A stretch of DNA of 64,000 bases, taken from the IMG/VR virus record IMGVR_UViG_3300042259_000159, one strand, 5' to 3'. Of this stretch, positions 6,392 to 64,000 are shown in pieces (position 1 is the first letter of the stretch; each line of letters begins with the position of its first letter). The position numbers were made by a program, and so were the translations under genes. A model generated the notes under the pieces. It had not been told where the DNA came from, did not search any database, and was given only the letters and a program-made list of their open reading frames with translations. The stretch comes from a virus.

Positions 6392-7006
6392 TTAGATGCC
6401 GAATACATCCTTCAGTACAGTGAAGAACAGCGTTCGAGTGTCATCCTTCCCACCATATTCAGGATGGGGTTGGAAGCACAGGCTCTTAGTCTTCGGGTAG
6501 ACGACAATTTCAGCTTGGTCGTCACGAAGAACAGAGCGCACCCTTCTTTCAGCCGAGAGAAGAGTGTTGTCGATGCAGTCTTCCACTTCTCCGAATCCTT
6601 CAAGACGACCATGACGGGCAGGAATCATCATCTGGTGGTGAGTGGAGGTGACTTTGTACTTTTCTCCCCTCCAATCGAGAGTGTGTGTGCCTCTGATGGC
6701 ATGACCCGTGACATCCTGCCGCATACTTCCACCATTCATCACATTGAGGAATTGCCCCCCACGGCATATTCCCACCAATGCTGCGTTGTGTTGTGTGGCA
6801 AAGAGGTAGTTGGTTATGTCAGCAATGTCTCGCTGAATACAATTATGGGAAGCCCTGTTGAGTTCACCATACAGAGAAGGGGTGACATCATATCCGCCAG
6901 AGAACACAAAGAGGTCAGCTTCCTCCATCTGTGTTGTCATCTGGTAGCCTGCATTGAGGAACATGGTGGACACAGCAATGTCTTGCGTAGACATAAAGAA
7001 TTTCAT
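6392..7006 (-). CDS. class I glutamine amidotransferase-like protein (gamma-glutamyl hydrolase type)
   Basis: Track ORF 204 aa. Nucleophile elbow GICRGGQ. Confidence 0.7.
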   Translation of the reverse strand: MKFFMSTQDIAVSTMFLNAGYQMTTQMEEADLFVFSGGYDVTPSLYGELNRASHNCIQRDIADITNYLFATQHNAALVGICRGGQFLNVMNGGSMRQDVTGHAIRGTHTLDWRGEKYKVTSTHHQMMIPARHGRLEGFGEVEDCIDNTLLSAERRVRSVLRDDQAEIVVYPKTKSLCFQPHPEYGGKDDTRTLFFTVLKDVFGI

Positions 7007-11599: not shown

Positions 11600-13050
11600 C
11601 ACAAACAAACAAAACCTTGCTAGGGCTTGTTTGTCTATGGCGCACAAAGCGTCTATCCTACTTTTCGCCATAGTCCATGATGCGCGTTCCCCGATAGCCT
11701 AGGAATAATTTGTCCTTTCTAAGCGAAGAAATACGCGGAACCATGCTACTTTTCGAATATCCGCTTTGCTTTTCGGAGCGGTGGCCCGCTGCAACCACTT
11801 AAGGAGTCTAGACCACGTCACGCCGCTGAATTCTATCAACGGTCTGCGATGTAAGACGGTACGGAACCTATATAGGACGGTTACCTATCGGTGTCAACCG
11901 GTTTTTTCGTCCGCTTGCCGTACCGTGCCGGTATGCCGCTGATATAGCATACGCCGTGCCAACGTGTGCAACATGTTGAAATATCAGCACTATTTTTTGT
12001 GCCCTGAAACGCTATGCCCTAACCGCTTTATGTAAACCGTTGAAATGACTAGCTTTTCATATAATGCCGGTTAAAAATTTTGTACCGCTTTTCTGCTAGT
12101 GAATGAAAACTATGGCAATGCCGTAATGTAAGCGCCTGATATAATTGGCGGTTTAAAAAATTATACCATTTCAGGCAAAAGTATAAAAAATTGAACCGAC
12201 CATTTTCTTGTATAATGAGACGCGATTGCAATTATTATGCCAAACTGAATGGAACGCCTTGTGCTTATGCAATTGCCATGCCAATTGATATGGCACAATA
12301 AGTGCATAAGCAAGCATTGTGCCAACAAAGTTATCAGCCAGTTTAGCATGAAGCGTGCCATAATGTCATAAGTGAATGATAGCAGCATGATAGCATGGTT
12401 CAGCAATCTGAATATAGAATGTTATGTCTCGTTTATTGATCATTGCATATAAGCAAAATGATCAATAAGAGAGACAATATTATATAATAAGTATATACTT
12501 GTGTCGAGCGTAAGCGAGACGATATAATACTATATAGAATACACGTAAGTGCCCATAATGATTGGACTATAGGTGAATGAGTAGTTGAAACATGATAGCA
12601 GTAGGGTAATGACCTATATATGCCGTAGGCGATATAGGATACCAGATAAATATGCCGTAGGCGATATAATATTCCCTAACCGATATAGATTTACAGGGGG
12701 GTAGTAGGGGGTGAGGGGGTGTCCTTTTGGATGCACTACCCCTTAAAAATTTCTCATAGAAATTATCGCCCCAGCCAAAAATATTTTCTCCAATTCCCCC
12801 GCACATTTACACACAAATATGTCGAGCGTAGCGAGACGATATAAAAATATTTTGTCACACTTTTGATTTTCTTACGTATATACATATAGGGGGATAAGGG
12901 GGGAAGAGGAATAAGTATTATAACGAAAGAAGAAGAAGAAGAAATAAGATGGTAGATATATAAAGGGGAGGGCTCTGCTAAGAAAGCAGCCCTCCCCTTA
13001 TAAGAAATAGATGAGGAAGAGAGAGGCTAACATAACAAAGGAAAAGTAGG
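11600..13050. repeat. 1.4 kb non-coding region with short direct repeats separating leftward early genes from the rightward tail-fiber gene
   Basis: No convincing ORFs. Repeated units include atatgccgtaggcgatata (x2), gtcgagcgta(a)gcgagacgatata (two copies), cggtt(t)aaaaa(a)tt-type units, and G-rich gggggtagtagggggtgaggggg. Confidence 0.4.
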
Positions 13051-13057
13051 AGAGAAG

Positions 13058-14956
13058 ATGGCTAAGATAAACATTCCTAATATTTCTTCTCCTTATGCGT
13101 CTCAGAATGCTTTGAATGAAAGATTCAAGATGATTGAGGACGTATTGAATGACAAGGTGTTGTGGAGAGACAACCCTATCGGAGAAGTGAACACGTTAAA
13201 GAATGACATAGACCTAGGCAACAACGACCTGCTTAATGTAGGCTTAGTTAGTGCTTCGTCTATTATGGTGCAGGGGCAGGGGCTAGAAGAAGGCATTACA
13301 GAAGCCTTGTCTCGTTGTACTGAAAAGGCTGACGAGGCTGAGGCTTCTGCTAATGCAGCTGCTGCTAATGCAGCCAGTGCTGAGGCTTCTGCTATTAGGG
13401 CGGAGGCTGCTGCGTCTCAAGTTGACCTGCCTGCCGTCTCCCCCGGAGATGAGGGGAAAGTTCTTACAGTTTCTCCTTCGTTAGAGAAGGAGTGGGCAGA
13501 GGTGCCTGAGGAGCTCCCTCCTTACAGCGTTGCAGACGAAGGGAAGGTTCTTAAGGTTTCTTCGTTGGGGGAGACAGAGTGGGGGATGGAAGAGAAAGAG
13601 CTTCCTTCCTACACACCGTTGGATGCTGGAAAGACCCTGTCTGTTAACGAAACAGGAAACGCAGTAGAGTGGACAGAGCCTCCTAAAGGGAGTGTTAATA
13701 TTGCTCCACAAACGATAGTGAGGGCTCAAGTGGGTCCTCGTCCCGACGGCTGGACGGCTGCTGACTGTGACGCCCCCGTGCAGAGTATGTCTGCGGAAAG
13801 CGCAGTCATCGTGAATAACGATGTACTCCCGGTGTTCTCTAGCTCTAACAGCAGCGGTGGGATGACGGTGTCAGCGCAGTCCATTTACAGTAGCACCTAC
13901 CCTGTATGGAAAGCGTTCAACAAGCAGGCCGTGAATTATACGGATAGTTGGCAATCAGGAAATGACTTCGCAAGTGACACCGGAGTTGGTAGCAGTTGGA
14001 TTCAAGTTGACATGGGCAGTCAGTTCAATGTGGCGCGTATCGTCCTGTATCCTCGAAATGAAGACGGGACGTTCAACACAAATTTCCCGTATGACTTCGA
14101 TATTGTCATAGACGGCGTGAAGGTGAAAGAGGTCAGAAATGCTATCCCGCCAAGCAGCACTGCGCGAATGGAGTTCGACCTAGATTCTCCGGTAACTGGG
14201 CAGATAGTCCGGTTGGACATTACGAGGACAGGCGGGGCCAGTGTGACTTCACTAGGCCAGTTTTATGTCTATGATGCGGAGGTAGTAAGTGGGAGCGCTC
14301 TTGTACAGATAGCCGCAGGGCTTCAAGTCGCTTACGCAGATGAGGGCAGGGTACAGTTGTCTGATGTTTTAGATTCAGCACATGCAGTTGACCTGTCGGC
14401 AGCGGCGGACGGGACGAGCTACATTTACGCGGATCTCTCGGAGGATGGGGCTTTCTCCGGTTTCGGTGCGACTGCCGTTGCGCCTGAGGTCGGGGCGGAA
14501 AAGGCCGACACATTGGCCGACCACTTCAACCCCGCAGAGGTTGTAATGTACAACGTCGCGGGTTCACCAGTCCGCCGCGTCTACATCGGCACGGCTGAAA
14601 AAGCGTCCGGAGCGATTACGAGTGTTCACTGCTATAGCCTTGGAACAGTAGTCACTATGCCCATAAACAGCGGCAACCCTGTGGCTACGCAGTCCCTTGT
14701 TCTTGATGAACTTCCTTATGCCTACAGCAGGATGATGCAGGTTGAACCGCAGTTGTACGGTGAAGGCATATGGGGCAAAGCTGGATGGATTTATACGTCT
14801 GCTGGCCTCGGTGTGTCGGCCACCGTGCGAAAAGAGGCAATCCGTGTTGTGACAGGCACTGGTCTTACTGCACAGTATGCGTCTATTGGTGGTGACTTTA
14901 ATGCAAACATACCGAGTCCGGCAAAAATCCGCGTCACGGTGCACAGGGGGTACTAA
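13058..14956 (+). CDS. tail fiber / receptor-binding protein with C-terminal discoidin-like carbohydrate-binding domain
   Basis: Track ORF 632 aa with RBS. N-terminus MAKINIPNISSPYASQ, Ala-rich coiled-coil stretch, and C-terminal SWQSGNDFASDTGVGSSWIQVDMG resembling an F5/8 type C domain. Confidence 0.7.
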   Translation: MAKINIPNISSPYASQNALNERFKMIEDVLNDKVLWRDNPIGEVNTLKNDIDLGNNDLLNVGLVSASSIMVQGQGLEEGITEALSRCTEKADEAEASANAAAANAASAEASAIRAEAAASQVDLPAVSPGDEGKVLTVSPSLEKEWAEVPEELPPYSVADEGKVLKVSSLGETEWGMEEKELPSYTPLDAGKTLSVNETGNAVEWTEPPKGSVNIAPQTIVRAQVGPRPDGWTAADCDAPVQSMSAESAVIVNNDVLPVFSSSNSSGGMTVSAQSIYSSTYPVWKAFNKQAVNYTDSWQSGNDFASDTGVGSSWIQVDMGSQFNVARIVLYPRNEDGTFNTNFPYDFDIVIDGVKVKEVRNAIPPSSTARMEFDLDSPVTGQIVRLDITRTGGASVTSLGQFYVYDAEVVSGSALVQIAAGLQVAYADEGRVQLSDVLDSAHAVDLSAAADGTSYIYADLSEDGAFSGFGATAVAPEVGAEKADTLADHFNPAEVVMYNVAGSPVRRVYIGTAEKASGAITSVHCYSLGTVVTMPINSGNPVATQSLVLDELPYAYSRMMQVEPQLYGEGIWGKAGWIYTSAGLGVSATVRKEAIRVVTGTGLTAQYASIGGDFNANIPSPAKIRVTVHRGY

Positions 14957-19158: not shown

Positions 19159-20031
19159 CTAGAACGGAATATCATCCATTTCGAAGTCTTCTTCACCGCC
19201 ACCAACACTGTCGTCATTAACATATTCATCAGGTTCAAAAGGAGGTTCATCAGGGAGTACAGGTGTTTCAGGTTCTTTTGTCTTCTCCTCCGCTACAGGG
19301 ATTTTACCCTCTTTGACATATTCTGTAACCGGCTTAACCAGTTGAAGAACCCAGATAGCTTTTTCCTGAATCTCATCCTCTTTCTTAGCAATATCACAAG
19401 CATTAAGAATGGCGTGACCCACGGCAGCACCAACATCATAGTCACTCATATCGGGGTGCTTCTTTGCATAAGCGGCCTTAAGCTTGGTTGTCAGGTCATG
19501 AATGAAGCAAGCCGTCTTAATGACAACGCTGTCATCTGCAACCTTTCCACCCTTAAGGAAACGGAATGCTCCGTTGAGTGCGTGACCGACACTAACCCCT
19601 GTCATATCTTTTTTGAAAGACTGCTTTTGCTGCCCACCGCCGGTCTGCTTGCTTTTTGCAGCAGCCTGCTTAAGCTTTATGCTTTTGCCGTTGTAGTAGG
19701 TAACACCGTTGGCACCTGTGTTTGTGGTTAGCGTGAAAGTAATTTCATCTCCTTCTTTCAGATCATGAAATCCTGCACCAAGCTTGATGGCAAACCTCTT
19801 ATCTTTTCTTCCTCCAATATTTACTTTAATACCATCAAAGGATACAGTCTCCATTTTATCCATATCCATACCCTTGACTTCACCATCAAACTGTGCCACC
19901 ACTCTTACCGTGTTTCCATAGTTATCAGGTTGCTTAAGCTCATTAAACCAAAGCTTGCTAATAACACCATTTACAACCATACTCATATCTTTCCTCCTTT
20001 TATCTAAAGCTTTAATATTTAAACTAACCAA
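19159..20031 (-). CDS. single-stranded DNA-binding protein with acidic C-terminal tail
   Basis: Track ORF 290 aa; C-terminus EEDFEMDDIPF as in SSB/gp2.5-type proteins. Confidence 0.6.
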   Translation of the reverse strand: MVSLNIKALDKRRKDMSMVVNGVISKLWFNELKQPDNYGNTVRVVAQFDGEVKGMDMDKMETVSFDGIKVNIGGRKDKRFAIKLGAGFHDLKEGDEITFTLTTNTGANGVTYYNGKSIKLKQAAAKSKQTGGGQQKQSFKKDMTGVSVGHALNGAFRFLKGGKVADDSVVIKTACFIHDLTTKLKAAYAKKHPDMSDYDVGAAVGHAILNACDIAKKEDEIQEKAIWVLQLVKPVTEYVKEGKIPVAEEKTKEPETPVLPDEPPFEPDEYVNDDSVGGGEEDFEMDDIPF

Positions 20032-20607
20032 CTTAAAAATAGACTATACATATTTTCTAAGTATAAGTCAAGAGTTTATTTATTTTATTATTATTTATCT
20101 TAATATTTCATATCTCTACACCTGAAAGGGATTCGATGGGTTTGAAGAGGTTTGGATAGACCACCCCCTATATACCAAGTATTAATACTTAGCTAGAGGG
20201 TCTTTCTATCCATTGATTCGATTGGGAATCAGATGGTCATATCCACAGACTTGATTGCAATCCTTGATTATAATCAGTCGTACCTTTCTCAGTACGGGAT
20301 ATGGGGAGTATATACACGTTGTGCTAGACATATATACCCTACTGGAATCATAACGAAGGATAGCTCCTCCGGCAGCACCCACACCAGTATTAGACCTAGG
20401 CTCTTGCTTCGCTGCGTCCCTCAAGTAACAAGTTCACCACATTTTGCGGCTTATACCCTGCTGGCCCTTGTTGGGGGTCGTCACAACCAACAGGCAGGAG
20501 TCTTGACAAAAGACCTCCTGTCACATACAGTATATGAAAGTGGGCGAACCAAAATCTTTTTGCATGTGAAAAATAAATATACAACAGAGTTTTCAAAAAG
20601 TCAAGAC

Positions 20608-33270: not shown

Positions 33271-33296
33271 GGCCGGAAATAATCCGGCCTTTTTTA
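33271..33296 (+). terminator. rho-independent terminator
   Basis: ggccggaaataatccggcc hairpin followed by tttttt. Confidence 0.55.
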
Positions 33297-33446
33297 CGTC
33301 TAAATCCAGAGGACTTTTTCATTTTAAAAGGTCTAGAGAGGTTTTTCATTTTGGGAGGTCTAAAGAACATTTTCAATTTACAACCAAAAGTAAAAAGTCT
33401 AGAGAACATTTTTAATTTGAGGTCTAAAGAGGATTTTCATTTTCAG
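33297..33446. repeat. iteron-like array (about five degenerate 27-nt units)
   Basis: Units of the form (a)ggtctaRaga(N)ttttcatttt; the first ~80 nt are identical to 37871-37951. Confidence 0.6.
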
Positions 33447-33460
33447 ATTTTTGTATGAAA

Positions 33461-33600
33461 ATGATACTCATTATCACCGATAATGGTCGTTGAAAACGAC
33501 ATTCATTATCAACGATATTGATAATCATTTTCAATGATATTGAGTTTCATTATCAATCTAAATAGTAACTATTACTAATAATAAAAATTGTGCAGGGGCG
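33461..33600. repeat. cluster of ATTATCA-containing palindromes
   Basis: attatcaccgataat, cattatcaacgatattgataatca, ttcattatcaatc. Confidence 0.45.
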
Positions 33601-37843: not shown

Positions 37844-37871
37844 GCGTTGACAAGGTTGACGCCTTTTTTAC
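37844..37871 (+). terminator. rho-independent terminator
   Basis: ggcgttgacaaggttgacgcc hairpin followed by tttttt. Confidence 0.5.
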
Positions 37872-37951
37872 GTCTAAATCCAGAGGACTTTTTCATTTTA
37901 AAAGGTCTAGAGAGGTTTTTCATTTTGGGAGGTCTAAAGAACATTTTCAAT
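37871..37951. repeat. second copy of iteron-like array
   Basis: acgtctaaatccagaggactttttcattttaaaaggtctagagaggtttttcattttgggaggtctaaagaacattttcaat, identical to the start of 33297-33446. Confidence 0.6.
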
Positions 37952-38502: not shown

Positions 38503-39119
38503 TCAAAAAACCTCAAAACAACATAAATAACAGGAGCACACTATAACTGACCGCACATTCTTTATCCACCTTATATCCGGCCACGTTGCTACGCTCGAAG
38601 AGTGGAGGGCAGACTATAAGTCAATGGATGCAGAACTATGGCACGGCAAGCCCGCTGAAGAGTGCAACCCTGATGAATGGCTTAAAGACGGCCTCCTTGA
38701 GGAATATGAAGCGGATCCCAACGAATAAAGCAGTTACACCACAGAGGCACCTATGAGGTGCCTCTTCTTATGCCTACTAGCGCCGTTATCAGGGTAACGG
38801 CAGGAATCAGCGGGAAACATGTATATAAGGAAAGAAAAACTAAAAGATAACCTAGGACATACGTAAGAGGTAAAAAGCATTAGAAGGCGCATAAGGGGCA
38901 CTAAATATGCCCCTTATTTGTTTGTGTGTCTAATAGGCTTTGTGTGTGCAAAAAGGCTTGTATAGCGGCTTTATCATGGAAGCCGCGCATACAGGCAAGG
39001 CTTTTAGCACTATATATGCACAGATACGGTGTATCCGTGAATATGGTTAATAATCTCTAAATACCTGCCCGAAAGATATGAAATATCTTGAGGGGGGAAA
39101 CACACAATAATCCTCCTGT

Positions 39120-39370
39120 CAAGTGTTACTGATTTTGAATATCATTATCAATGGAGATATTGTCATTGAACAGCATAACGCTGTTATACACACGGATCAA
39201 TTAATTCCCATCGATCAGCATTTCGCTGGTGCTGCTGGAATCAACACTTGTTGAGATAATGACATCCATTATCAATGCTGTTCAATGGCCGTTTTCAACG
39301 GCAATGTTTCACGTGAAACATTCCTGATCAGAATACTGGCAAGAAACATTGATAACGACAATCTTTATCA
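39120..39370. repeat. palindrome/repeat cluster in large non-coding region
   Basis: Repeated cattatcaatg units, palindrome gtttcacgtgaaac, and gttgataacgacaatctttatcaac inverted repeat. Confidence 0.4.
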
Positions 39371-39442
39371 ACGTATCTGGCGATCCTTTCAGGTTAACAC
39401 AAATCTGGAAGAAAGTAAAGTAATATAAATTTTAATAAGGGG

Positions 39443-39471
39443 TTGACATCTTCCTGATATTTTGATATTAT
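39443..39471 (+). promoter_or_regulatory. sigma70-like promoter
   Basis: TTGACA, 17 nt spacer, TATTAT. Confidence 0.35.
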
Positions 39472-39967
39472 AGAAAGAGAGGCGTATGGGGAGGGGGGAG
39501 GCCTTAAGCACCGGTATACTTATATACCAAGTACCCCTATAGGTTCATGCCGGATATTTGCCCAAGTACCCCTATAATGGTATACCGATATACTTATACA
39601 CACCATATCTGCACACAGAAGGTATAGGGGGATATTTCCTGCTAGGATATTTCCACACAAAAAGGGGGAGTATATGGGAGGGATATTCCTGAAGGGAATA
39701 GATATTTTAGACAGGTATATATATATTATCTCTATGCTATATATACTCTATATATGTATATTCCATATATACATATTTCTTCTTATTCTATTCTTCTATT
39801 TCTACTAATGAGATATATACATATTAGGACAGCATATGCATGTGTCTACATCACATGTAGACACATATATACACATTCCCTTTCCTAACGGACAGCCGTA
39901 TTATAACATATTTTTTGGATTTTGTCAAGAACTTTTTTGTATTTCACATGGAAAATATTTCATACCG

Positions 39968-40085
39968 GCTATTCCTTTTGGGAATAGCCTATTCCATTTT
40001 GGAATAACCATTCCTAGGGGAATAGCCTGTTCCCAGAGGGAACAGACATACCCGAAGGGAATAGATATGCCCATTGGAAATAGCA
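39968..40085. repeat. array of GGAATAG-containing direct and inverted repeats
   Basis: gggaatagcc, ggaatagcctattcc, gaatagcctgttccc, gggaatagatatgccc, ggaaatagc within about 120 nt. Confidence 0.45.
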
Positions 40086-40414
40086 AAAGCCCACACACCT
40101 GTAAAGATATGTGGGCTGATAACATTAACAGTGTTAATAACATTAGCGAAGCTAATAATATTTTATCCTATCAATCAATACCTGTAGCTACGTGATCGAG
40201 GCAGAGCACCTGTGGTCGAGGTAGAACACCTTGCCAATGCAGAAGGTATGCCCTTCCTTCATAATGCGGAATGTTGCTTGCATGGGCACATTTACCTCCA
40301 CTACCCACTGGATGCCTTGTTCAGGCCAGAAACTCAAGCTGCCGTTAAACTCAAAAGGCTTTGCTTCACAACCCTTCACAGCGGTATTTATCTCTTCCAT
40401 ACCATCTTCACCAG

Positions 40415-48848: not shown

Positions 48849-51800
48849 CTAAATGCTTTTATCTACAAACTTTCTCTGTGGAAAATCAAATTCCCGCCTT
48901 GTTTTATTCCAAGCTTTTACGGGTGTAAAAAACCCAACAACCCTTGTCAGCTGTGTACTTATATCTTCCGAACATATGGGGCATGTACTGAAGGAACCCA
49001 TAGAGACATGGGAGTTGATACACTCAGAGTATACGGTATTAATGGCAAAATGTTCACATCCACAACCCAAAGCAAAACAGATAATTTTCTTGGCCTGCTC
49101 TCTTGTCAGCCTCTGCCCGACAGTGGCATGAACAATCCCCCCGCCTGTTAGGTTTTTAGTATATTCTCCGTCAATTCTGAGCCTGTCCCACAGAGATGCC
49201 TCTTCCCACAAAGGAACAAACTGGTTTGCATAGAGAGGGTATTCTATAAAAGTATCGCCGTGAATGATCTTATCTGCGCTGCAAACTTTTACAGCCATAC
49301 TCTCTGCTGGGATTTGCTCAATGTTGAAGACATATCCTGCGTTCTTCTTGGTATACAATCTAGCTTTTCTGTTAAGAAATGTCAAGATCTTTTTCTTCAA
49401 ATCCCCCTCAACACCGAACCTTTGTTTAAGAACCTTTTCACACTCGTAAAGACCAAGAATACCAAACGTTGAAAAGAGCCTGTTGAGGTCTATCCACCCA
49501 CGCGTTATAAAAGGCTGAAGACCTATTTGTTCAAGGACATGAATCAAGACCTTATGAGCAATCAGAATATCTTTAGCAGCCTCTACACGGTACGTGTATA
49601 TTTTCCAAAAATCATCAATACTCTCGGCCTCAATTGCCATCTTGTTGAAATTAAGAGTAACAACTCTATGGCTCCCGATGCTGGAAAGAACACCGGCACC
49701 GAAAGAATTGGAGGTGGATGCCACATCTAACATCTCTTCATCATTGATCAATCGGCAACAGCTAGCGATCTTTGTGCTCTCAGATGTGAAAATATTGTAG
49801 CGCGAAATGTCTCTATTAAGAAATATTTCCAAACTCTCTTCGTCTGCAAGGATGTAATCATCGCCGTCCTTAGTTTTTGAAATGTTCATCGTGCAAACAG
49901 GGAACCTGTAAGGCATCCCGTTATTTGAGGGATCTCCTTTATCAAAGATGTCTAGGAATATTTCCTGCAATTCAAAAACATAGTCAACACACTCTTCTAT
50001 ATCTACAACACCACCATCTGAAAACATCCACAAAAGATGTTCCTTTATGATGTACCTGAGTTTGTGTTTATCAAACACCGATACATTGGTAAAGGGACTC
50101 TCAACTCCGTCACGACTCAAATGGTTTACGCTGTGAATAAGCTGTTGAAACTCGTTTTCTATCTCTTTCCTCACAGCCTTATCGTTTTTAAGCACATCAA
50201 GGGGAACCTTATTCTTTATCATGAGAAGGTGAGCAACATCTATAAATACAGTACCTATGGCTAGAGCACCAGCAACATGCGATGACATTTGGTGGATTGT
50301 CTCACACAGGGCGGCAATATAACTATTAACTCTTTTTGCCGGTTTAGAGGGCAATACTCCAAAAGTTCTTCCTTCTGTAATGAGATTTGTTGCGTTTAAA
50401 GAATAACAATTATGTTGCACCATTCCGTTTGCATAAAAACGGCCCGTTGCTGTTGTCAAATCATATACGTCTTGAAGCTCCTCTCTAAGCTTTCTTGTAC
50501 TAGGAATGTCTTCAAGATTAAACCTGATGATTTTTACAACCCTGTTGCTTTCGCCCTTGGTGTTTGCTTTTTCATTATACTTATCATAGTCTTCTTTATG
50601 CATCTTCATCTTATCAGAAAGATCAACCATCTTATTCGTACTTGACGGGACAAAGGAAAGGGCATAAATCGAATTAGAAATATCACTCCCTTTTATCCTT
50701 TTTCTAAGGCATCGAATACCTTCAATGCCTCTAAGGACGTCATAAAGTGTGTTTATTACTGCCATAGACTGCAAACAAATCTCCACCCTGCCATTCTTTT
50801 TGTAGGTATATCCGTCCGCGTCTACAAGCCCCGCAACAAGTGCCTCTACAGAATCATTTGTCCAAGAGAGGATGTTCTTAGGAAGAACCTTTGTGAAGCT
50901 ATTTTCTTTGTTCCCGAAACCAAAAAAGGCACTTACAAGAAAATTCATATCATAAGAAGACCAATTAATCTGTCTCTCGACTTTATCACTGGGCTTAAAA
51001 AGATTCGCATCAGGAAACAAGTCTTTTATGATACTATAAATTCTTGAGTTATCAATATCGTTTTGATAAACACTGCAAAGCGTTCCCCCTCTTGTAAATC
51101 TGAAAGAGCCTTTTATGTCCTTACCGTTCATTACGCCATCATCAACACAATACCCTTCAAAGTTCCCATCACCAAGCATAAAGCCAAGAAGGTAGGCCAG
51201 CTTTTCTGGAACAATTATTGTTTTTTCCACGGAGGGCAAACAAGTCTCTGTCAAAACAGCATCCCCAACAGAAAGTTCTGAGGCTATTTTTTCAGTTCCA
51301 TCTTCCATATAGATTGGGTGGTTGTCTGTTACCAAAGCAAAGTGCCCTGCCTCTGTCTGATACAAAGAGAATCCTGTATCCGTTTTATGCTTGATAATAC
51401 GTTGTACAGCAACCCATCCATTGTTTGTATCCCAAACCTCTATATTAACTTTTTCACTCACATTGCAGGCCAACTTACCGGAACGACCTTTTGCGGTGTT
51501 CTTGTTAGTGATGTTCGCACTCACATTATTACGCAGCATTGCTGTTGTAATCTCTAGATCTCTTGTAAGGCCTTTTGTGTTAATTTCCTCATGCGTACCC
51601 CTATTTTCGGAGTGTATTGCAAACATATTGAAAAGCTTTTTAAGAGGAATACAAATAATCTCTCCGTTAATTCTGACAAAAACAGGCGTGTTTCCATAAT
51701 ACGAATATGGAAGGTTTAGCTTCGTGCTGTCGGAGATGGGAAGACTGAAATCCAACATTTCTCCTATAAGCCTTTTAGCCCTCTTCTTGCCGTAGAGTTC

Positions 51801-52151
51801 CTTCATAACACGGTAGAGGAAATCGTACCCTGCAATTTTTTTCTGGGGGGCACTTGCCTCACTCTGTATTCCGGCAATTGTCTTCTCATTCTTATTAGCA
51901 TTGTCATCAATAGAGACATCATTAATGTTTGCATTTAATTGTTTTTGAAACATCTTGAGAAAGTCTGTATTGTCCTGCGAAAGACCATGCAGACGCATAA
52001 GTTTTTCAGCTTTTGTATCAATCTCTTCTTGAGAAAGGGTTGTTTTACGAGAAAGATTCCTTTTCAAAGCCTTAAGCATCTGTTTCCGTGTGTATTCAAT
52101 CTCAGCATCATTTGTAAAAGATGAAGAAAAACCTTTAGCTATGCTATTCAA
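48849..52151 (-). CDS. nrdD: anaerobic ribonucleoside-triphosphate reductase (class III) carrying an intein
   Basis: C-terminus has four-Cys zinc ribbon (CINSH...CPIC) and glycyl-radical motif TRVVGF...WNKTRREF. Start uncertain: track begins at TTG 52220; TTG at 52151 after AAGGAG is preferred here. Confidence 0.8.
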   Translation of the reverse strand: MNSIAKGFSSSFTNDAEIEYTRKQMLKALKRNLSRKTTLSQEEIDTKAEKLMRLHGLSQDNTDFLKMFQKQLNANINDVSIDDNANKNEKTIAGIQSEASAPQKKIAGYDFLYRVMKELYGKKRAKRLIGEMLDFSLPISDSTKLNLPYSYYGNTPVFVRINGEIICIPLKKLFNMFAIHSENRGTHEEINTKGLTRDLEITTAMLRNNVSANITNKNTAKGRSGKLACNVSEKVNIEVWDTNNGWVAVQRIIKHKTDTGFSLYQTEAGHFALVTDNHPIYMEDGTEKIASELSVGDAVLTETCLPSVEKTIIVPEKLAYLLGFMLGDGNFEGYCVDDGVMNGKDIKGSFRFTRGGTLCSVYQNDIDNSRIYSIIKDLFPDANLFKPSDKVERQINWSSYDMNFLVSAFFGFGNKENSFTKVLPKNILSWTNDSVEALVAGLVDADGYTYKKNGRVEICLQSMAVINTLYDVLRGIEGIRCLRKRIKGSDISNSIYALSFVPSSTNKMVDLSDKMKMHKEDYDKYNEKANTKGESNRVVKIIRFNLEDIPSTRKLREELQDVYDLTTATGRFYANGMVQHNCYSLNATNLITEGRTFGVLPSKPAKRVNSYIAALCETIHQMSSHVAGALAIGTVFIDVAHLLMIKNKVPLDVLKNDKAVRKEIENEFQQLIHSVNHLSRDGVESPFTNVSVFDKHKLRYIIKEHLLWMFSDGGVVDIEECVDYVFELQEIFLDIFDKGDPSNNGMPYRFPVCTMNISKTKDGDDYILADEESLEIFLNRDISRYNIFTSESTKIASCCRLINDEEMLDVASTSNSFGAGVLSSIGSHRVVTLNFNKMAIEAESIDDFWKIYTYRVEAAKDILIAHKVLIHVLEQIGLQPFITRGWIDLNRLFSTFGILGLYECEKVLKQRFGVEGDLKKKILTFLNRKARLYTKKNAGYVFNIEQIPAESMAVKVCSADKIIHGDTFIEYPLYANQFVPLWEEASLWDRLRIDGEYTKNLTGGGIVHATVGQRLTREQAKKIICFALGCGCEHFAINTVYSECINSHVSMGSFSTCPICSEDISTQLTRVVGFFTPVKAWNKTRREFDFPQRKFVDKSI
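50409..51467 (-). mobile_element. intein with LAGLIDADG homing-endonuclease domain inside nrdD
   Basis: In-frame insert with block B GHFALVTDNH, two LAGLIDADG motifs (LLGFMLGDGNF, LVAGLVDADGY), C-terminal block VYDLTTATGRFYANGMVQHN followed by Cys. N-terminal boundary (CNVSEK vs earlier Cys) uncertain. Confidence 0.6.
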
Positions 52152-52659
52152 AGCAGTAAACTCCTTCTTTTGTAAGTTTAACATAATTATTATTATAAAG
52201 TTCTTGGTTAGACGAACCAAGTACGAGTTTTGTCCTTTGCCCTTTTGTTGTATCTGACTGGTGCAGTTCTTTTATATACTCTCCTGTTTTTATAAATTTG
52301 AAACCGTTAAGATTAAGGTATTTAACAGTGTCAATATCGTATCCAGTATAAATACATATGTTAAAACACCCACCGTATTGTTCTAAGAACTGTGCTGTAA
52401 ACCCTCTGTTGCAGGAGGCTAGCGGATCTCCACCAAGAAGTACAATATTATTTGTGCGGTATTTTAAGGTCTCCTGTTTACAATGGTTGTAGAAGTCTTC
52501 AATGGAAAATTCCACACCACCCTGATATTCAGGGTTTTGCAGGGAGGGGTTATGACACCCCTTACAGGAAAAATCACACCCACACATAAAAAGACTTACT
52601 GCCCACCCATCCTTTGAGGGGTAGTCTGTAAATGTCATCTCAGAACCTGCAAATCTCAT
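52144..52659 (-). CDS. nrdG: anaerobic RNR activating enzyme (radical SAM)
   Basis: Track ORF 171 aa; radical-SAM Cys motif CDFSCKGC (C-x3-C-x2-C) near the N-terminus. Confidence 0.8.
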   Translation of the reverse strand: MRFAGSEMTFTDYPSKDGWAVSLFMCGCDFSCKGCHNPSLQNPEYQGGVEFSIEDFYNHCKQETLKYRTNNIVLLGGDPLASCNRGFTAQFLEQYGGCFNICIYTGYDIDTVKYLNLNGFKFIKTGEYIKELHQSDTTKGQRTKLVLGSSNQELYNNNYVKLTKEGVYCFE

Positions 52660-55122: not shown

Positions 55123-55206
55123 TGGTAGGAGAAGAGAGATTCGAACTCTCAAGGAATAATCCGTCGAGGCTTAAACTCGATGTGTTTACCATTTCACCAT
55201 TCTCCC
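55123..55206 (-). tRNA. tRNA-Leu (anticodon TAA), type II, CCA encoded
   Basis: Hand-folded cloverleaf: acceptor GGGAGAA/TTCTCCT, anticodon stem TCGAG/CTCGA with loop TTTAAGC, long variable arm, T-arm GAGAG-TTCGAAT-CTCTC. Confidence 0.7.
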
Positions 55207-55245
55207 GTATTTTTTATCTACCATTCCGCCATTCCCGCATTTATT

Positions 55246-55323
55246 TGGTACCCACTGTGAGATTCGAACCCACACTAATCAGTTTCTAAGACTGATGCCT
55301 CTGCCAAGTTGGGCTATACCAGT
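55246..55323 (-). tRNA. aberrant tRNA-like gene (anticodon TAG, type I architecture, poorly paired acceptor stem)
   Basis: Good D-, anticodon (TCAGT-CTTAGAA-ACTGA) and T-arms, but 5' acceptor ACTGGTA mispairs with the adjacent 3' strand AGTGGGT. Confidence 0.4.
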
Positions 55324-55581
55324 ATTATGCTTATTATTTTATTTTGAAAGGCCATATGTATACACATATATATATATACATATATATATGTATAGAGCAA
55401 CCAAAATGGTTAAATAAAAAGGTGTTTTGTGGAGACACCAAACTCCTCCAGTTTTAGTGATCTGGAAACAATAAGCGGCGCAGGTGCTCTTTAAAACACG
55501 TGCTACCAAGCGTATAAATTGTCTAGGGGATTTCACCAAACACATTATGTTATTGGAGGGATCTTTCCCTAGACTCAGTAA

Positions 55582-55654
55582 AGCTCCTGACAGGACTTGA
55601 ACCCGCAACCGGCTGATTACAAATCAGCTGCTCTGCCAGTTGAGCTACAGGAGC
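55582..55654 (-). tRNA. tRNA-Thr (anticodon TGT), no encoded CCA
   Basis: Acceptor GCTCCTG/CAGGAGC, D-arm GCTC...GAGC, anticodon loop TTTGTAA, T-loop TTCAAGT. Confidence 0.7.
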
Positions 55655-55658
55655 AGAA

Positions 55659-55730
55659 CAGAGGGAGAAGGATTCGAACCTTCGAATGACGGGACCAAAA
55701 CCCGTTGCCTTACCGCTTGGCTACCCCTCT
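55659..55730 (-). tRNA. tRNA-Gln (anticodon TTG), no encoded CCA
   Basis: Acceptor AGAGGGG/TCCCTCT, anticodon stem ACGGG/CCCGT with loop TTTTGGT, T-arm GAAGG-TTCGAAT-CCTTC. Confidence 0.7.
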
Positions 55731-55738
55731 AAATTTTT

Positions 55739-55815
55739 TGGCTCCGGCGGCAGGATTTGAACCTACATTCGCAATGGTTAACAGCCATTTGCCTTACCAA
55801 TTCGGCGACACCGGA
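55739..55815 (-). tRNA. tRNA-Asn (anticodon GTT), CCA encoded
   Basis: Acceptor TCCGGTG/CGCCGGA, anticodon stem AATGG/CCATT with loop CTGTTAA, T-arm GTAGG-TTCAAAT-CCTGC. Confidence 0.7.
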
Positions 55816-55860
55816 ATGAACTTTTTATTTGTTATCAGCATTGTTTTGCTTTATTTTAAA

Positions 55861-55939
55861 TGGTCTCGGTGATTAGATTTGAACTAATGATTATTCCTGC
55901 TCCCAAAGCAGGTGCCATACCAAGCTAGGCGACACCGAG
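55861..55939 (-). tRNA. tRNA-Pro (anticodon TGG), CCA encoded
   Basis: Acceptor CTCGGTG/CACCGAG, anticodon stem CCTGC/GCAGG with loop TTTGGGA, T-arm ATTAG-TTCAAAT-CTAAT. Confidence 0.65.
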
Positions 55940-56416
55940 ATCAGGTGTGGTACCAAACTCCACTATGGGCAGAGGTTATAAGAAGGTCCGTACATGATAT
56001 AGACAGATATTCTTCCATAACAGCGGTACGGACGCTGTCTCATTTTTATATCTTTCAGTGTGCTATTACGCCAAAGGGAAATTAAGCCTTACCAGTTACG
56101 GGGTGCCCTTTTACTATCCACAAAGAATTTCAAATCGCGTGCATTCTAAGTATCGGAAAATTCTACAACCACTTAAAGTACACCTCGTTTAAGAGATAGC
56201 GACCTGTGCTTCGTCCCACTCTTTAAAGGATGGCTGCCTCAAAGCCCACCTCCTGAAAAATGCATGAAGGATTATCCCTCCTTCGCTAAATACAACCTAT
56301 CAATTTTAAGGGTTCTTGTCAAGAACATTTTAAGGTTTTTGAAATTTTTGTTGAACGCTGATTTGCTACGCGGGTACAGCGTTCGAAACCTCGATAGCAT
56401 CCTTGCCGTTGGCAAA

Positions 56417-56506
56417 GCTGTCAGGAGCCGCAGGAGGAGAATTGAACTCCTCTGGCATCAACACGCAGTCACCACAACTACATCTACCGTTACGGGTATG
56501 GCTCCC
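56417..56506 (-). other. tRNA-like element (T-arm and acceptor helix, non-canonical D/anticodon region)
   Basis: Minus-sense GGAGCCA...GAGGAG-TTCAATT-CTCCTC...CGGCTCC; lies just outside the right-end hairpin of the tnpB element. Confidence 0.3.
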
Positions 56507-56574
56507 CATCCTAGTCACCTGTTGATACCTTATAGGTTCAGCCCTACCAAGGGCACTGCGGCTTAAGTGGGTTG

Positions 56575-56860
56575 GTTGGTGCAGATTGTGAACGTACCCC
56601 CGCCTATAGAGGCGGAAGCTTCCTGCTTCAGCGAGAACAGCACCAGTAACTCCGAAGAGTTGTGGCGAATTACACTCTCTCCACAGGCGTAAATTCCCGT
56701 GCGACCCACGGTACTTTATGAGTTACGCTAGGCAGATATTCGCCCAGCTTCTTCTCTAATATTTATTGCAGCGTTCTTGTCACGGTTATGATGACTGCCA
56801 CACTTAAGGCAATCCCATTCCCGCACAGACAAGTCTTTGGTATCCTTGTTCTGGTAGCCA
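56575..56860 (-). ncRNA. candidate TnpB guide RNA (omega/reRNA) region at the element right end
   Basis: By analogy with IS200/IS605 TnpB systems the guide RNA overlaps the tnpB 3' end and runs to the right-end hairpin (56600-56615). Not folded or aligned. Confidence 0.3.
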
Positions 56861-57965
56861 CAGACATGGCATAGCTGACTGCTTGGATACCATTTGTCTA
56901 TCTTGATAAGTTGCTTACCCTGCCATGCAAGTTTGTATTTCAGCATACTTGTGAACATGCTCCAGCCGTTGTCGGATATGGATTTACCAAAGTTGAACTT
57001 GCCACCCTTCTTTCGCTTCGCCATGTCCTTTACGCTAATGTCCTCTATGCCAATCACATCATAGCGGTCTGCAAGATAACGAGCTTTCTTATGCAGGAAG
57101 TCGCGGCGTTGATTAGCAATTTTCTCATGGAGTACAGCCAAACGTAGTCTTTGTTTATTCCTATTACGGCTCCCTTTTTGTCTCTTGGAGAGTTTTCTTT
57201 GTGCCTTGATCAATCTCTTTTCGGCTTCCCGTAAGAAATTTGGATAATCGGCGTTGTCCTCATCGGAAGCAACATACATCCCGTGCATAGCAAAATCCAA
57301 TCCAAGAAAATTCTTCGGTATGATGGGAAGTATTTGGTTTTCATACTCCACCAAAATACTAATATAGTATTTTCCTGACGGTGTTTTACTTATGGTTACA
57401 GTCTTTATGGTGCTATTCTCCATCAATGGACGATGCAGACACAGCTTTACCCAACCTATTTTCGGCAGCTTGACTTTGTTTCCCTCGATTCTTACAGAGC
57501 CATGTTGGTTGTTCGTAGAATATGAAGCATGACCCGCTTTCTTCGACTTGAAGCGTGGCTTGCAAAAATGCTTCCTATTGCTCCAAAAGTTGTTATACGC
57601 CTTGTTCAGGTTTATTTGGGCATTGGCGAGAGCAAGGCTGTCAACCTCTTTCAGCCAAGGAAACTCTTTCTTGTACTGTGCAGGTGTGTTGTTCAGCCTC
57701 TCTCCTGTTTCCTTATAGTGATCAAGACGATCTCCAAGCATCTTGTTATAGATGAATCTGGCACTGCCGAAAGTCTTGGCAAACATAATCTTCTGTTCAA
57801 TTGTCGGGTAGAGTCTATATCGGTATGCCTTATTCACTATAATCACCTGCCTTGATTTTCTATGTATTTACGAATTGTCTCAAACGGAGCAATTATCTGG
57901 CTCAACTACTTACGTAAATTCGCTAGACACACCTTCATCCCCCACCTTAGAGGTGGAGGGCTTCT
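56590..57965 (-). mobile_element. IS200/IS605-family insertion element carrying tnpB only
   Basis: tnpB flanked by similar imperfect palindromes: cccgcctatagaggcgg (56600-56615) and ccaccttagaggtgg (57942-57956). No Y1 tnpA. Inserted between tandem tRNA-Leu genes and the rest of the tRNA array. Confidence 0.65.
56728..57846 (-). CDS. tnpB: TnpB (RuvC-like RNA-guided endonuclease, IS605 OrfB family)
   Basis: Track ORF 372 aa; N-terminal YRYRLYPT, RuvC-like region, C-terminal zinc finger CHVCGY...CLKCG. Confidence 0.85.
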   Translation of the reverse strand: MIIVNKAYRYRLYPTIEQKIMFAKTFGSARFIYNKMLGDRLDHYKETGERLNNTPAQYKKEFPWLKEVDSLALANAQINLNKAYNNFWSNRKHFCKPRFKSKKAGHASYSTNNQHGSVRIEGNKVKLPKIGWVKLCLHRPLMENSTIKTVTISKTPSGKYYISILVEYENQILPIIPKNFLGLDFAMHGMYVASDEDNADYPNFLREAEKRLIKAQRKLSKRQKGSRNRNKQRLRLAVLHEKIANQRRDFLHKKARYLADRYDVIGIEDISVKDMAKRKKGGKFNFGKSISDNGWSMFTSMLKYKLAWQGKQLIKIDKWYPSSQLCHVCGYQNKDTKDLSVREWDCLKCGSHHNRDKNAAINIREEAGRISA

Positions 57966-57987
57966 GGCGGGTTAGGTTAAATCCCTT

Positions 57988-58012
57988 GTGTCTACTAATT
58001 CCACCAATCGGG
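57988..58012 (-). pseudogene. truncated tRNA 5' fragment (acceptor + D-arm) adjacent to the tnpB element left end
   Basis: Minus-sense GCCCGATTGGTGGAATTAGTAGACAC duplicates the 5' 26 nt of tRNA-Leu(TAA) at 58023-58109, including the aaagatttt spacer, but has no anticodon or T-arm. Confidence 0.45.
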
Positions 58013-58022
58013 CTAAAATCTT

Positions 58023-58109
58023 TGGTGCCCAATGCAGGACTCGAACCTGCACGCCATTTCAGGCAGGAGGGCTTAAACCTCGTGTGTCTACCAATTCCAC
58101 CAATCGGGC
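58023..58109 (-). tRNA. tRNA-Leu (anticodon TAA), type II, CCA encoded
   Basis: Acceptor GCCCGAT/ATTGGGC, anticodon loop TTTAAGC, long variable arm, T-arm GCAGG-TTCGAGT-CCTGC. Confidence 0.65.
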
Positions 58110-58118
58110 TAAAATCTT

Positions 58119-58202
58119 TGGTGCCTCAGACAGGATTCGAACCTGCACGGATCTCTCCACTTGGTCCTAAGCCAAGCGTGTCTGCCATTCCACCACTGAG
58201 GC
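58119..58202 (-). tRNA. tRNA-Leu (anticodon TAG), type II, CCA encoded
   Basis: Acceptor GCCTCAG/CTGAGGC, anticodon stem CTTGG/CCAAG with loop CTTAGGA, long variable arm, T-arm GCAGG-TTCGAAT-CCTGT. Confidence 0.7.
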
Positions 58203-59284: not shown

Positions 59285-59551
59285 CTATCTCCTCCGCAAG
59301 TTGCGCTCTCTGGTCAAGCCACCATTTTTTTCTGACACGTCTTTGTCTCTTTCAATCGTGTAGAGAAGGTTTTCGGATTTGTCTATCAATTCCTGTAATT
59401 GATGATATATTTTCCGGTATTCGTCGTGCGAAATATCCAAAAGTTCCCGCATTCCGTCTCTGGTATTCTTAAACAACAAGCAATCTGCATCACCACGAGA
59501 AAGGCCAAGGTTTGCTTCCATATAATTAAACGGGCAAACAGGCTTTTTCAT
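59285..59551 (-). CDS. hypothetical protein
   Basis: Track ORF 88 aa in a run of small co-directional minus-strand ORFs. Confidence 0.35.
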   Translation of the reverse strand: MKKPVCPFNYMEANLGLSRGDADCLLFKNTRDGMRELLDISHDEYRKIYHQLQELIDKSENLLYTIERDKDVSEKNGGLTRERNLRRR

Positions 59552-59808
59552 GTTGTCTCCTTTATTTCTTCAATAAGTGTTTCCAGGTCTGAACACTCCT
59601 GCTCAAGTGCCTTGTGCAGTGCTTTATTCTCATGAGCACCTTGCATTTCCGAGTACAGCCGCCCGAGCAACGATGCTTCCAAGTATGGCAAAACCCTTTT
59701 CAACAGTTCACCTCGCAACAAATTTTCAGTAACCTGCTTTTCTTGGTGGTTCTTCATCAGGCAAGAACCGCAAATAATATTCTCGCTGTGGTTACAGGAC
59801 GTTATCAT
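59548..59808 (-). CDS. hypothetical protein
   Basis: Track ORF 86 aa; start/stop overlap with neighbours. Confidence 0.35.
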   Translation of the reverse strand: MITSCNHSENIICGSCLMKNHQEKQVTENLLRGELLKRVLPYLEASLLGRLYSEMQGAHENKALHKALEQECSDLETLIEEIKETT

Positions 59809-61423: not shown

Positions 61424-61772
61424 ACTTACCTCCTGTTTTTGTTTTAGTTGTAAGGTGCTTTTACCTGTCAATATCAAACTACCCCTATTCCCCCTGTTTG
61501 TCAATACCTTATTCTTATCTAAACATAAGATATATATATTATATATATATTCTTTATATAATATAAATATATATACTTTATATATAGTATATTTATATAA
61601 TATATATATGTATATAATATATATACTCCTACTCACTACGAGACACATACATAATATATACATTAACCCTTCCTGCAAAGGAAGCCGTAGGATACCATAA
61701 AAAAGAGATTTTGTCAAGCATTATTTTAAGAAATGTTAAAAATAATTTCCTAACCTAATCTCTATTTTTTAC

Positions 61773-63350: not shown

Positions 63351-63585
63351 TCAGGAAACATCAAGGGTTAATTAGTAGCCCCTTGTGTTGGTGACAGCGC
63401 AAGCAAACTAACCTAATTCGGTGGAAGCCCAAACATGTAGGATGTGGGTGATACCGAGCAAGCCACGGCGTGTGTAACGACTAGTTCTTAGGAACGTAGG
63501 CCCAAGCGGGTCGAAACGGTTAGCATCTTATTAAGATGAAGATATAGTCTACTCTGCATGGAAACATGCAGCGGACACTTTATGT
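63350..63585 (+). mobile_element. group I intron core (candidate), copy 2
   Basis: R-like gtaacgactagttc (63474-63487), S-like gaagatatagtctac (about 63537-63551), P9-like hairpin ctgcatggaaacatgcag (63553-63570). Confidence 0.5.
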
Positions 63586-63594: not shown

Positions 63595-63860
63595 ATGTTA
63601 GCGCCATCTGTTGAATATTATGTACAATATACCCTGATATGCTTTGATGAGGCAACACATTTCACTTTCCAACAAGTTGAATACTTAATGTCACGTATGA
63701 GAAGTAAAAGTAAGTATGCTTCTCGTATGGTTCTGTCGTGGATTACGCGACATGTATGGCGAAAGCTGTACTGGCAACTGTGTGAACTCAGGGAAACCTT
63801 AGCTGCTGCAATTGGGCAGAGGAAGAAGGCAATCCTGAGCGAAGCCTTCCCACCGGGAAG
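63595..63860 (+). CDS. terL: terminase large subunit, exon with Walker B
   Basis: Walker B ICFDEATHF shortly after the start of track ORF 63595-63888; 3' boundary approximate. Confidence 0.5.
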
Positions 63861-64000
63861 GAACGTGCAACGACCATCGAAAGCGTAACACCTGTTACAG
63901 TGAGTAGAGTACACCACACATGTGTGGTGGAAGCGCACAGCCCCTAACATGTAACGATGAGGGTGAAGATATGGTCTGAACCTACAGAAATGTAGAAAAA
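63860..64000 (+). mobile_element. group I intron core (candidate), copy 3, running off the window
   Basis: R-like gtgcaacgaccatcga (63864-63879), S-like gaagatatggtctgaac (63965-63981), P9-like hairpin ctacagaaatgtag (63982-63995). Confidence 0.45.

Follow-up and report, generated by a model that had tools for sequence, protein, structure and literature searches.

A gene-free control region between convergent operons of an uncultivated phage: a candidate transcription-activated replication origin

In the replication origin of phage lambda, tandem repeats of about 19 bp with dyad symmetry recur every 20 bp or so next to an AT-rich region, and transcription in the vicinity is required for the origin to fire. 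Where two strong promoters converge and their transcripts overlap, transcription from one can interfere with the other or exert antisense control. In phage T4, the transcript formed at oriF and oriG persists as an R-loop that primes leading-strand synthesis (PMC4412123), and at origins of the ColE1 type G-rich stretches of the RNA help to maintain a persistent hybrid (PMC4412123, and general knowledge). Iterons combined with an AT-rich region are named as a general origin signature by Rajewska et al. (2012, as cited in PMC7145576), and phage ICP1 uses a theta origin first and then a second, rolling-circle origin near its pac site (PMC7145576). Here we describe a gene-free region of 1.46 kb within a 64,000-nucleotide stretch of DNA from an uncultivated phage (IMG/VR record IMGVR_UViG_3300042259_000159; the whole stretch is hereafter called the window). 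This region carries a triad of tandem dyad-symmetric repeats, a tract of 22% GC and two strong promoters that face the tract. We take it to be a non-coding control region and, tentatively, a transcription-activated replication origin. A preliminary description of the same DNA had already proposed a candidate origin or regulatory hub here. A regulatory hub agrees with all the features found, and a candidate origin is still the best single reading, although it is drawn from anatomy (iteron-like palindromes, AT-rich tract, promoters, and conservation in one relative) and the convergent position of the region is atypical.

Promoters and terminators are reported here as sequence matches at the consensus level (sigma-70 consensus). 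The coordinates of all features are collected in Table 1. P(+) is the near-consensus promoter of the preliminary description and is present as described, TG extension included. P(-), which that description had missed, faces it, the two predicted start sites being about 415 bp apart. A promoter scan of the 64 kb returned six sites with at least 11 of 12 matches, four of them with TG, and P(+) and P(-) are two of these four. Both are aimed at the TA tract, and no conserved open reading frame (ORF) lies downstream of either. An A/T-rich stretch (39929-39968) is found upstream of P(-). As to the tract itself, the segment 39681-39830 is among the five lowest-GC 150-bp segments of the 64 kb; ATATATACAYATT occurs three times (39765, 39813 and 39865), and the minus strand, i.e. 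the P(-) transcript, contains a purine-rich run (39806-39777). The G-run cluster that lies between P(+) and the tract is, jointly with one at 12.65-12.9 kb, the densest in the window. Short repeats are dispersed over the same segment, namely CCAAGTACCCCTATA (twice), GGTATAC-type units (three) and GGATATT(T)CC (three). Repeat units and TATATA-rich tracts had been listed before and are indeed present, CCAAGTACCCCTATA and GGATATTTCC twice each, in addition to GGATATTTGC.

Table 1. Features of the gene-free region and of its paralogous module (positions in the window; promoters and terminators are consensus-level matches)
Feature	Position	Strand	Details
Hairpin, U tail weak; probably the first terminator behind the rightward genes	38743-38765	+	read from sequence
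Intrinsic-terminator-like element, second for rightward transcripts	38891-38917	+	10-bp stem then TTGTTTGTGT
Candidate terminator of the P(-) transcript	38997-38950	-	hairpin of about -19 kcal/mol then TTTTTG
Possible micro-gene, 31 codons	39010-39117	-	AGGAGG-N6-GTG; ORF 39105-39010; ends 13 nt before the minus-strand terminator
Inverted-repeat cluster	39130-39381	.	built on TTATCAAYG/CATTGATAA
P(+)	39443-39471	+	TTGACA-17-TATTAT, TG extension, 11/12; predicted start near 39478
G-run segment	39478-39682	+	GGGGAGGGGGGAGG at 39488-39501; G5 at 39627 and 39664; GC skew +0.15
u0, isolated seventh palindrome	39683-39701	.	ATATTCC-TGAAG-GGAATAG; left edge of TA tract
TA-rich tract, candidate DNA unwinding element	39702-39835	.	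22% GC, about 135 bp (composition only)
Hairpin, perfect 12-bp stem, 3-nt loop	39840-39866	.	ATGTGTCTACAT-CAC-ATGTAGACACAT; 27-53 nt downstream of P(-) start
P(-)	39928-39900	-	TTGACA-17-TATAAT, TG extension, 12/12; predicted start near 39893
Palindrome array u1-u6	39969-40083	.	six head-to-tail 19-bp palindromes, consensus CTATTCC-N4/5-GGAATAG
Intrinsic terminator of the leftward operon	40117-40088	-	13-bp stem then TTTTGCTATTT
Paralogous module	61480-61721	-	TTGACAAAATC...TGgTATCCT-ACGGCT promoter + TA tract + half-site; leads leftward operon

The third member of the triad had been noted as about six GGAATAG motifs at 39968-40085. The array is real and non-random, but its units are 19-bp palindromes rather than simple heptamer repeats; they start at 39969, 39989, 40008, 40027, 40046 and 40065, with a period of 19-20 bp and 0-1 nt between them. 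Six of the 13 exact GGAATAG heptamers of the window fall within 39695-40064, and six of the seven window matches to CTATTCC-N5-GGAATAG with at most three mismatches are located here, 2.9 being expected in the whole window. GGAA(A)TA half-sites are similarly concentrated (12 of 85 within 39633-40082, against a maximum of 6 per 600 bp in 200 shuffles). Four half-sites lie at 39630-39701, and the three GGATATT(T)CC copies are also left of the TA tract. Since u0 and these copies stand across the tract from the array, a putative family of binding sites brackets the core. Relative to the P(-) start site, GGAATAG sites are found from -41 to -160 upstream and about 200 nt downstream, and, for transcripts from P(+), the first array unit is scored as resembling a terminator. 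In the imperfect units, G-U pairs do not consistently favour one strand, an argument for a role at the DNA rather than the RNA level. Origins of the iteron type have 3-4 or more tandem units of about 17-22 bp next to an AT-rich region; the array has six of 19 bp, the AT tract being 135 bp away, beyond P(-).

Other identities of the array were considered as well. A CRISPR array or solitary repeat unit, with repeats of about 28-37 bp and unique spacers, is ruled out by abutting units of 19 bp. A CsrA-type sponge or tandem-hairpin RNA is unsupported, the GGA motifs being located in stems and the imperfect units having no strand-specific wobble. A scan of IMG/VR with the array pattern recovered the window's own contig only, and the same scan of GTDB genomes gave 36 scattered, unrelated matches, mostly a Dactylosporangium repeat, with no pointer to the host or to a binding protein.

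Five other assemblies of the same phage are 100% identical across the region and therefore offer no variation to read. The informative relatives are L098 (JGI 3300043122; right half, 39693-40120), L093 and L094 (right edge) and L101 (ENA; left edge), which leave 38876-39692, with P(+), the G-run segment and the palindrome cluster, uncovered. Over the 142 nt of 39693-39834, L098 has zero substitutions, one 2-nt and one 16-nt indel; over the 100 nt across P(-) it has three substitutions, with the -35, the -10 and the TG identical. The TA tract and P(-) thus total three substitutions in about 242 nt (~99% identity), and conservation in the region is highest in this promoter and the TA tract and not in an ORF. 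The hairpin downstream of the P(-) start has both arms 4 nt longer and of different sequence in L098, the symmetry being kept (-10.8 vs -10.1 kcal/mol). The array of L098 counts about 3.5 units, in which the ATTCC/GGAAT cores are kept and outer positions change symmetrically; in the first unit, three outer-stem changes compensate one another (GGCT...AGCC to AACC...GGTT), and the T run that follows this unit is lost. Both L098 and L093 preserve the stem of the terminator that closes the leftward operon, with variation in its loop, and L093 and L094 confirm the right edge of the region. At the left edge, L101 is about 92% identical up to ~38875, with an invariant block of 45 nt, and retains the stem of the first hairpin of Table 1 with a changed loop. 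Absence from relatives had been named beforehand as an observation that would speak against a functional region; the core is highly conserved in L098, the sole relative that covers it. A further relative, L095, found through a 114-amino-acid (aa) protein, is mosaic, with another downstream region and no array. IMG/VR scans with the flanking proteins returned the source contig only, the methyltransferase proved promiscuous and not syntenic as a marker for relatives, and the P(-) leader pattern had no matches in GTDB genomes.

The promoter-TA module occurs twice in the window. Ungapped comparison of the minus strand of 61721-61657 with the P(-) region gives 41 identities out of 65, the next best alignment giving 35 and the background 17 +/- 3.7; the blocks in common are TTGACAAAATC, TATGnTAT, TACGGCT and GGAAGGG. 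This paralogous module comprises a promoter (61717-61689), a TA tract (61530-61627; 13% GC, the lowest GC in the window) and a GGAATAG half-site (61485-61491), and is located at a divergent switch point. In its ortholog in the relative L104, the promoter and flanks have ~94% identity, and the TA tract varies in length and stays AT-rich, as expected of an unwinding element that is constrained by composition. The first gene of the leftward operon behind it is a split Dam-like methylase: the D12-class adenine methyltransferase is divided between different frames, 61420-61256 (N-terminus with the FVGGGN motif) and 61193-60714 (DPPY motif), which could be due to a frameshift, a small insertion or an intron.

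The region had been delimited as gene-free at 38760-40190. No credible gene was found there, but the limits are corrected to 38729-40187, the left one being the stop codon of the last rightward gene (38726-38728). The statement that no credible ORF is present likewise stands in the sense that ORFs exist (119 aa, 105 codons and 31 aa) and none passes as a conserved gene; a Pfam scan of the three (the second being 39111-39425) gave no matches. The 119-aa ORF (39836-40195, plus strand) is called by the JGI and Logan gene callers in several assemblies. Its codon-usage log-odds of 0.055 is below that of all 37 training genes (0.07-0.45), the 95th percentile of the null being 0.088. An exhaustive HMMER search of 1.84 billion representative proteins matched it only to itself and to the ORF at the same locus of L098 (P0037), which has another start, 67% identity over 61 residues, and the conserved terminator in a different frame; in the part alignable with L098, three of three substitutions are non-synonymous. 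The ORF also contains a 12/12 promoter and an intrinsic terminator, both of the opposite strand. For the frame 39111-39425 the codon score, 0.116, is borderline. This frame contains one in-frame TGA, lacks a start signal and coincides with the inverted-repeat cluster; rescue of this frame by TGA recoding is ruled out, TGA being the stop codon of 5 of 40 genes in this phage. The 31-aa ORF scores -0.04 for codon usage, unlike a coding sequence, although it is too short for a verdict, and it has no homolog; a type I toxin-antitoxin system is ruled out because the peptide is not hydrophobic. On this evidence, no protein gene in the region is conserved; the 31-aa ORF alone leaves a slight doubt.

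As an origin, the region might work as follows. A putative dimeric DNA-binding protein would bind the palindromes of the GGAATAG type that flank the core, i.e. the four half-sites on the left and the six tandem sites on the right. Host RNA polymerase would fire from P(-) and from the facing P(+) into the TA tract, which would melt easily, and the nascent RNA could stay hybridised as an R-loop, possibly favoured by the purine-rich run in the P(-) transcript and by the non-template G runs downstream of P(+). The phage family-A DNA polymerase would extend the 3' end of the RNA, the displaced strand would permit loading of the T7-gp4-like primase-helicase, and the module at 61.5-61.7 kb would be a second site of this kind. 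A phage that encodes a gp4-like primase-helicase, a family-A polymerase and a 5'-3' exonuclease and has no recognisable initiator is suited to RNA-primed initiation. The type of replisome, the conservation of promoter and TA tract, the duplication of the module and the lack of a gene for either promoter to serve are what lead us to favour an origin. Two of the five window matches to the DnaA-box consensus TTATNCACA lie here (39184 and 39594), the total of five being not above the chance expectation of 3.5; together with the densest GATC cluster of the window, they count as weak extras.

Several observations weigh against an origin. With convergent operons on its two sides, the region sits at the maximum and not the minimum of the cumulative GC skew; origins are not usually expected in such a place, and a fork departing in either direction would run head-on into an operon. 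Intergenic stretches richer in AT are found at divergent switch points, one beside the replication genes (19971-20120) and one in the paralogous module (61511-61660). P(-) may be an ordinary promoter and the module a promoter class, given that P(-) has its own candidate terminator about 940 nt downstream and that the paralog is an operon promoter with leader. TTATCAAYG motifs are also found at 33440-33560 and close to other promoters, which suggests a transcription regulator common to these sites. ICP1 has a mapped theta origin, yet no comparable gene-free region near it. Searches for a binding protein with PHROG and Pfam among about 45 neighbouring ORFs yielded no DNA-binding candidate or initiator, and families of the Rep, O or DnaA type were not found in the flanking ORFs (Pfam on JGI calls; Pfam and PHROG scans), where a small unrecognised protein is possible. 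Finally, the support from comparison is thin, since one relative covers the core and recent recombination rather than constraint could explain its high identity. Two further approaches to an origin were dropped: GC skew as an origin locator, as it tracks gene orientation here, and a rolling-circle double-strand origin, as no HUH Rep gene was found.

The rival that fares best, although we consider it somewhat unlikely, is a purely regulatory locus of non-coding sense and antisense RNAs with an operator array. The P(-) RNA, of about 940 nt (39893 to ~38950), might end in the 31-aa micro-ORF, and the antisense RNA from P(+) would overlap it for about 415 nt and run into the array, with interference by collision of polymerases or through double-stranded RNA; the array and half-sites would be operators through which a regulator silences or insulates P(-) and keeps transcription from P(+) from running antisense into the leftward operon. 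Such a locus would account for two strong promoters that face each other, for a terminator directly after an ORF headed by AGGAGG-N6-GTG, for a paralog of P(-) that serves an operon as its ordinary promoter and has a long, TA-rich leader, and for GGAATAG sites on both sides of the P(-) start, which suit repression by looping. The terminator-like character of array unit 1 for P(+), and TTATCAAYG motifs near other promoters or in intergenic stretches (29976, 33504-33558 and 62285), as operators of a shared regulator would be, point the same way.

The 940-nt unit depends on a candidate terminator that came from a relaxed scan and was not reported by the stricter tool; this terminator and the hairpin downstream of the P(-) start had, like P(-), escaped the preliminary description. 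The minus-strand fold of 38940-39130 is well below shuffled sequences (z -4.7), and the P(+) leader (39478-39682) folds no better than shuffles (z -0.56). Rfam 15 gave no match for the region at gathering thresholds and, at E-values up to 5, only sub-threshold matches at chance level. A non-coding codon score and no homolog for the 31-aa ORF, the loss in L098 of the T run after array unit 1 and the absence of a strand-consistent G-U bias in the array units all speak against such an RNA locus, and a TA-repeat leader of 135 nt would be odd for an mRNA.

That the region is a mosaic junction or decayed remnant, made up of an orphan duplicate of the 61.7-kb promoter, a decayed gene at 39111-39425 and slippage-prone repeats, and without function of its own, is improbable. 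Flanking genes do differ among relatives (those on the right are unrelated in L098, and the 61-aa gene on the left is absent in L101), array copy number varies, and the frame 39111-39425 combines a borderline codon score with an in-frame TGA. Yet P(-) is unchanged in L098, with 12 of 12 matches and the TG, the symmetry of the hairpin is kept and the half-site cluster is far above chance. Decay would not preserve a perfect promoter, hairpin symmetry and half-site cluster, which makes this explanation hard to hold.

Some terminases act at short repeats that are arrayed at intervals of about 20 bp. A packaging site had been among the earlier suggestions; the region would then hold the sites of a small terminase subunit or the physical ends of the genome. 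The pac site of ICP1 moreover adjoins its second, rolling-circle origin (PMC7145576). A packaging signal or genome terminus is nevertheless very unlikely, because a scan of ORFs in the 64-kb window revealed no terminase or head-packaging gene and no long assembly ends in the region: contigs of 70, 91.6 and 117 kb run through it, and only short Logan unitigs break in the repeats. Its setting between replication/early genes and nucleotide-metabolism/methylase genes also disagrees with a packaging function. The notion that the 119-aa ORF is a real protein gene expressed from P(+) is scarcely credible, as its repeated calling, an AGGA 6 nt before its ATG and one homolog are set against a codon score below those of all training genes, a frame not kept in L098, no Pfam match, and an opposite-strand promoter and terminator within it.

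Outside the core, the inverted-repeat cluster, which had been noted as a palindrome cluster at 39120-39370 and is confirmed, contains a perfect 20-bp palindrome at 39303-39322 (AATGTTTCAC followed by GTGAAACATT), four GATC sites and, at 39164/39275, an inverted pair that matches perfectly over 13 nt; on either strand its fold is much more stable than those of shuffled sequences (z about -5). GATC is under-represented in the whole window (97 observed vs 238 expected; observed/expected 0.41), and the only 200-bp segment with four such sites, the densest in the window, is inside the cluster (39195-39385). The TTATCAAYG motif family is common to the cluster and to the intergenic stretch 33440-33560, with a 25-nt match of 88% between 33490-33514 and 39349-39373. 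This intergenic stretch has a 22-bp tandem repeat, ATTCATTATCAAYGATATTGAG, and TTATCA palindromes; single copies of the TTATCA family occur at 29976 (just after a promoter -10), 61128 and 62285. An exact 91-bp direct repeat lies at 33287-33377 and 37861-37951, each copy with two TTTCATTTT-N4-GGTCTARAGA units, and degenerate copies of these units continue to 33440; they are possibly a phage-specific class of promoter or operator.

The window has a second gene-free stretch, of about 1.46 kb, at 11600-13057, with a GC-rich, ORF-free part at 11620-11960. It contains the 27-nt repeat TGTCGAGCGTAAGCGAGACGATATAATA at 12502 and 12821, two copies of GCCGTAGGCGATATA, a (GAA)n purine tract and clusters of G runs at 12696-12720 and 12889-12903; 'TATAGGGGGATA' and the purine-tract flavour are common to this stretch and the region studied here.

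Gene order bears out the arrangement given in the preliminary description, rightward genes on the left of the region and leftward genes on its right. The left flank encodes the gp4-like primase-helicase, the family-A polymerase, a CCA-adding enzyme and many small ORFs. The right flank encodes a 76-aa ORF, two N6/N4 methyltransferases, an HNH nuclease, DUF1156, a PAPS-reductase-like protein, a ligase, NrdD with an intein, ThyX, tRNAs and TnpB. Both operons are closed by terminators at the borders of the region (Table 1), which the preliminary description had likewise missed; the hairpin ahead of the rightward one was not flagged by the terminator scan because its tail has only 4 T. The last rightward gene (38543-38728; 61 codons, codon score 0.35) has a good AGGAG and no ATG, GTG or TTG where the start is expected, ATA standing at 38543, and gene callers give only a 34-aa version; it is the 61-aa gene missing from L101. 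Eight tRNA genes have a TnpB (IS605 OrfB) gene among them (spans given for the tRNA genes, TnpB and the intein-containing NrdD: 55126-58202, 56728-57846 and 48849-52220), and two group I introns, 150 bp apart, are found at 63359-63571 and 63728-63997. On the minus strand, 2890-7006 encodes an amidoligase module with a phiEco32-like COOH-NH2 ligase, a glutamine amidotransferase and a peptidase C26.

The window spans the junction of IMG/VR records 3300042267_000152 and _000191, which overlap by 127 bp (59458-59584), and a JGI contig of the same phage measures 117 kb. Since the window crosses this junction, the phage genome is at least ~117 kb and not 91.6 kb. Left of 14315, an otherwise identical 70-kb JGI contig has structural genes instead of the window sequence, and all 59 mismatches between the two fall in the 550 bp of 14317-14863, within a gene of the F5/8-type-C, tail-fibre-like kind; this is a swapped or hypervariable receptor-binding segment.

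Origins have been mapped in very few phages, none of them close to this lineage. Should the region be an origin, it would offer a compact, testable case of initiation driven by host RNA polymerase with a T7-type replisome, and the promoter-TA-GGAATAG module would be a sequence handle for origins in related metagenomic phages. Should it be a sense/antisense RNA unit, it would be an unusually strongly promoted non-coding locus for a lytic phage. Whichever reading holds, the publicly annotated 119-aa 'hypothetical protein' is almost certainly no gene.

With the described systems, the region shares parts rather than sequence. It resembles T4 oriF (uvsY) and oriG (gene 34) in that a promoter is followed by an easily melted element and that more than one module is present per genome: P(-) leads within about 60 nt into the TA tract, and the module occurs twice. 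A promoter reading into an adjacent downstream unwinding element, as at the T4 origins, is thus present, as judged from the consensus match and from composition. However, the T4 promoters are MotA-dependent middle promoters, whereas those described here are consensus sigma-70 promoters with an extended -10, and the T4 origins have neither a facing second promoter nor flanking palindrome arrays, nor any sequence similarity to this region. With the lambda origin it shares dyad-symmetric tandem repeats of about 19 bp at a period of about 20 bp near an AT-rich region. Lambda, however, has four iterons inside the initiator gene O, while six (~3.5 in L098) are found here, in an intergenic position and with a promoter between them and the AT tract; the repeat sequence is unrelated, and no O-like or other initiator gene was detected among the ORFs scanned. 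As in ColE1-type origins (RNA II/RNA I), host RNA polymerase would supply the RNA primer for a family-A polymerase, and a transcript from the opposite strand would overlap this RNA; unlike the region described here, those origins have no iterons, their geometry differs and their antisense RNA is structured and about 108 nt long, while the P(+) leader has no special fold. The face-to-face switches of coliphage 186 (pR/pL), P22 (ant/sar) and Enterococcus pCF10 (prgQ/prgX) likewise consist of two strong convergent promoters, but there each promoter expresses genes and the two are 60-230 bp apart, in contrast to an overlap of about 415 nt spanning a TA-repeat tract and no credible gene.

The nearest characterised phages by PolA are the Vibrio phages PWH3a-P1 and ICP1 (38-40% amino-acid identity; ICP1 38%), of which ICP1 sets a precedent for two origin-type sites. 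Neither has DNA similarity to the phage described here, the gene order is different, and ICP1 lacks a 1.4-kb gene-free stretch like this one near its mapped origin; comparison with that origin is uninformative. A DNA search of 38700-40250 against 50,697 phage records gave no match; nothing known among phages or in Rfam or Pfam corresponds to the region, whose components are those of a well-known kind of element. It is tempting to speculate that the region is a bidirectional origin of undescribed design in a lytic phage with a T7-type replisome, in which two face-to-face promoters for the host polymerase, one TA element into which both fire, palindromic iterons for a putative initiator and a second module 22 kb away join RNA priming of the T4 type, iterons of the lambda type and antisense control of the ColE1 type, but this is a good deal less likely than an origin as such. 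Unusual about the region is its pair of promoters placed face to face over one TA tract.

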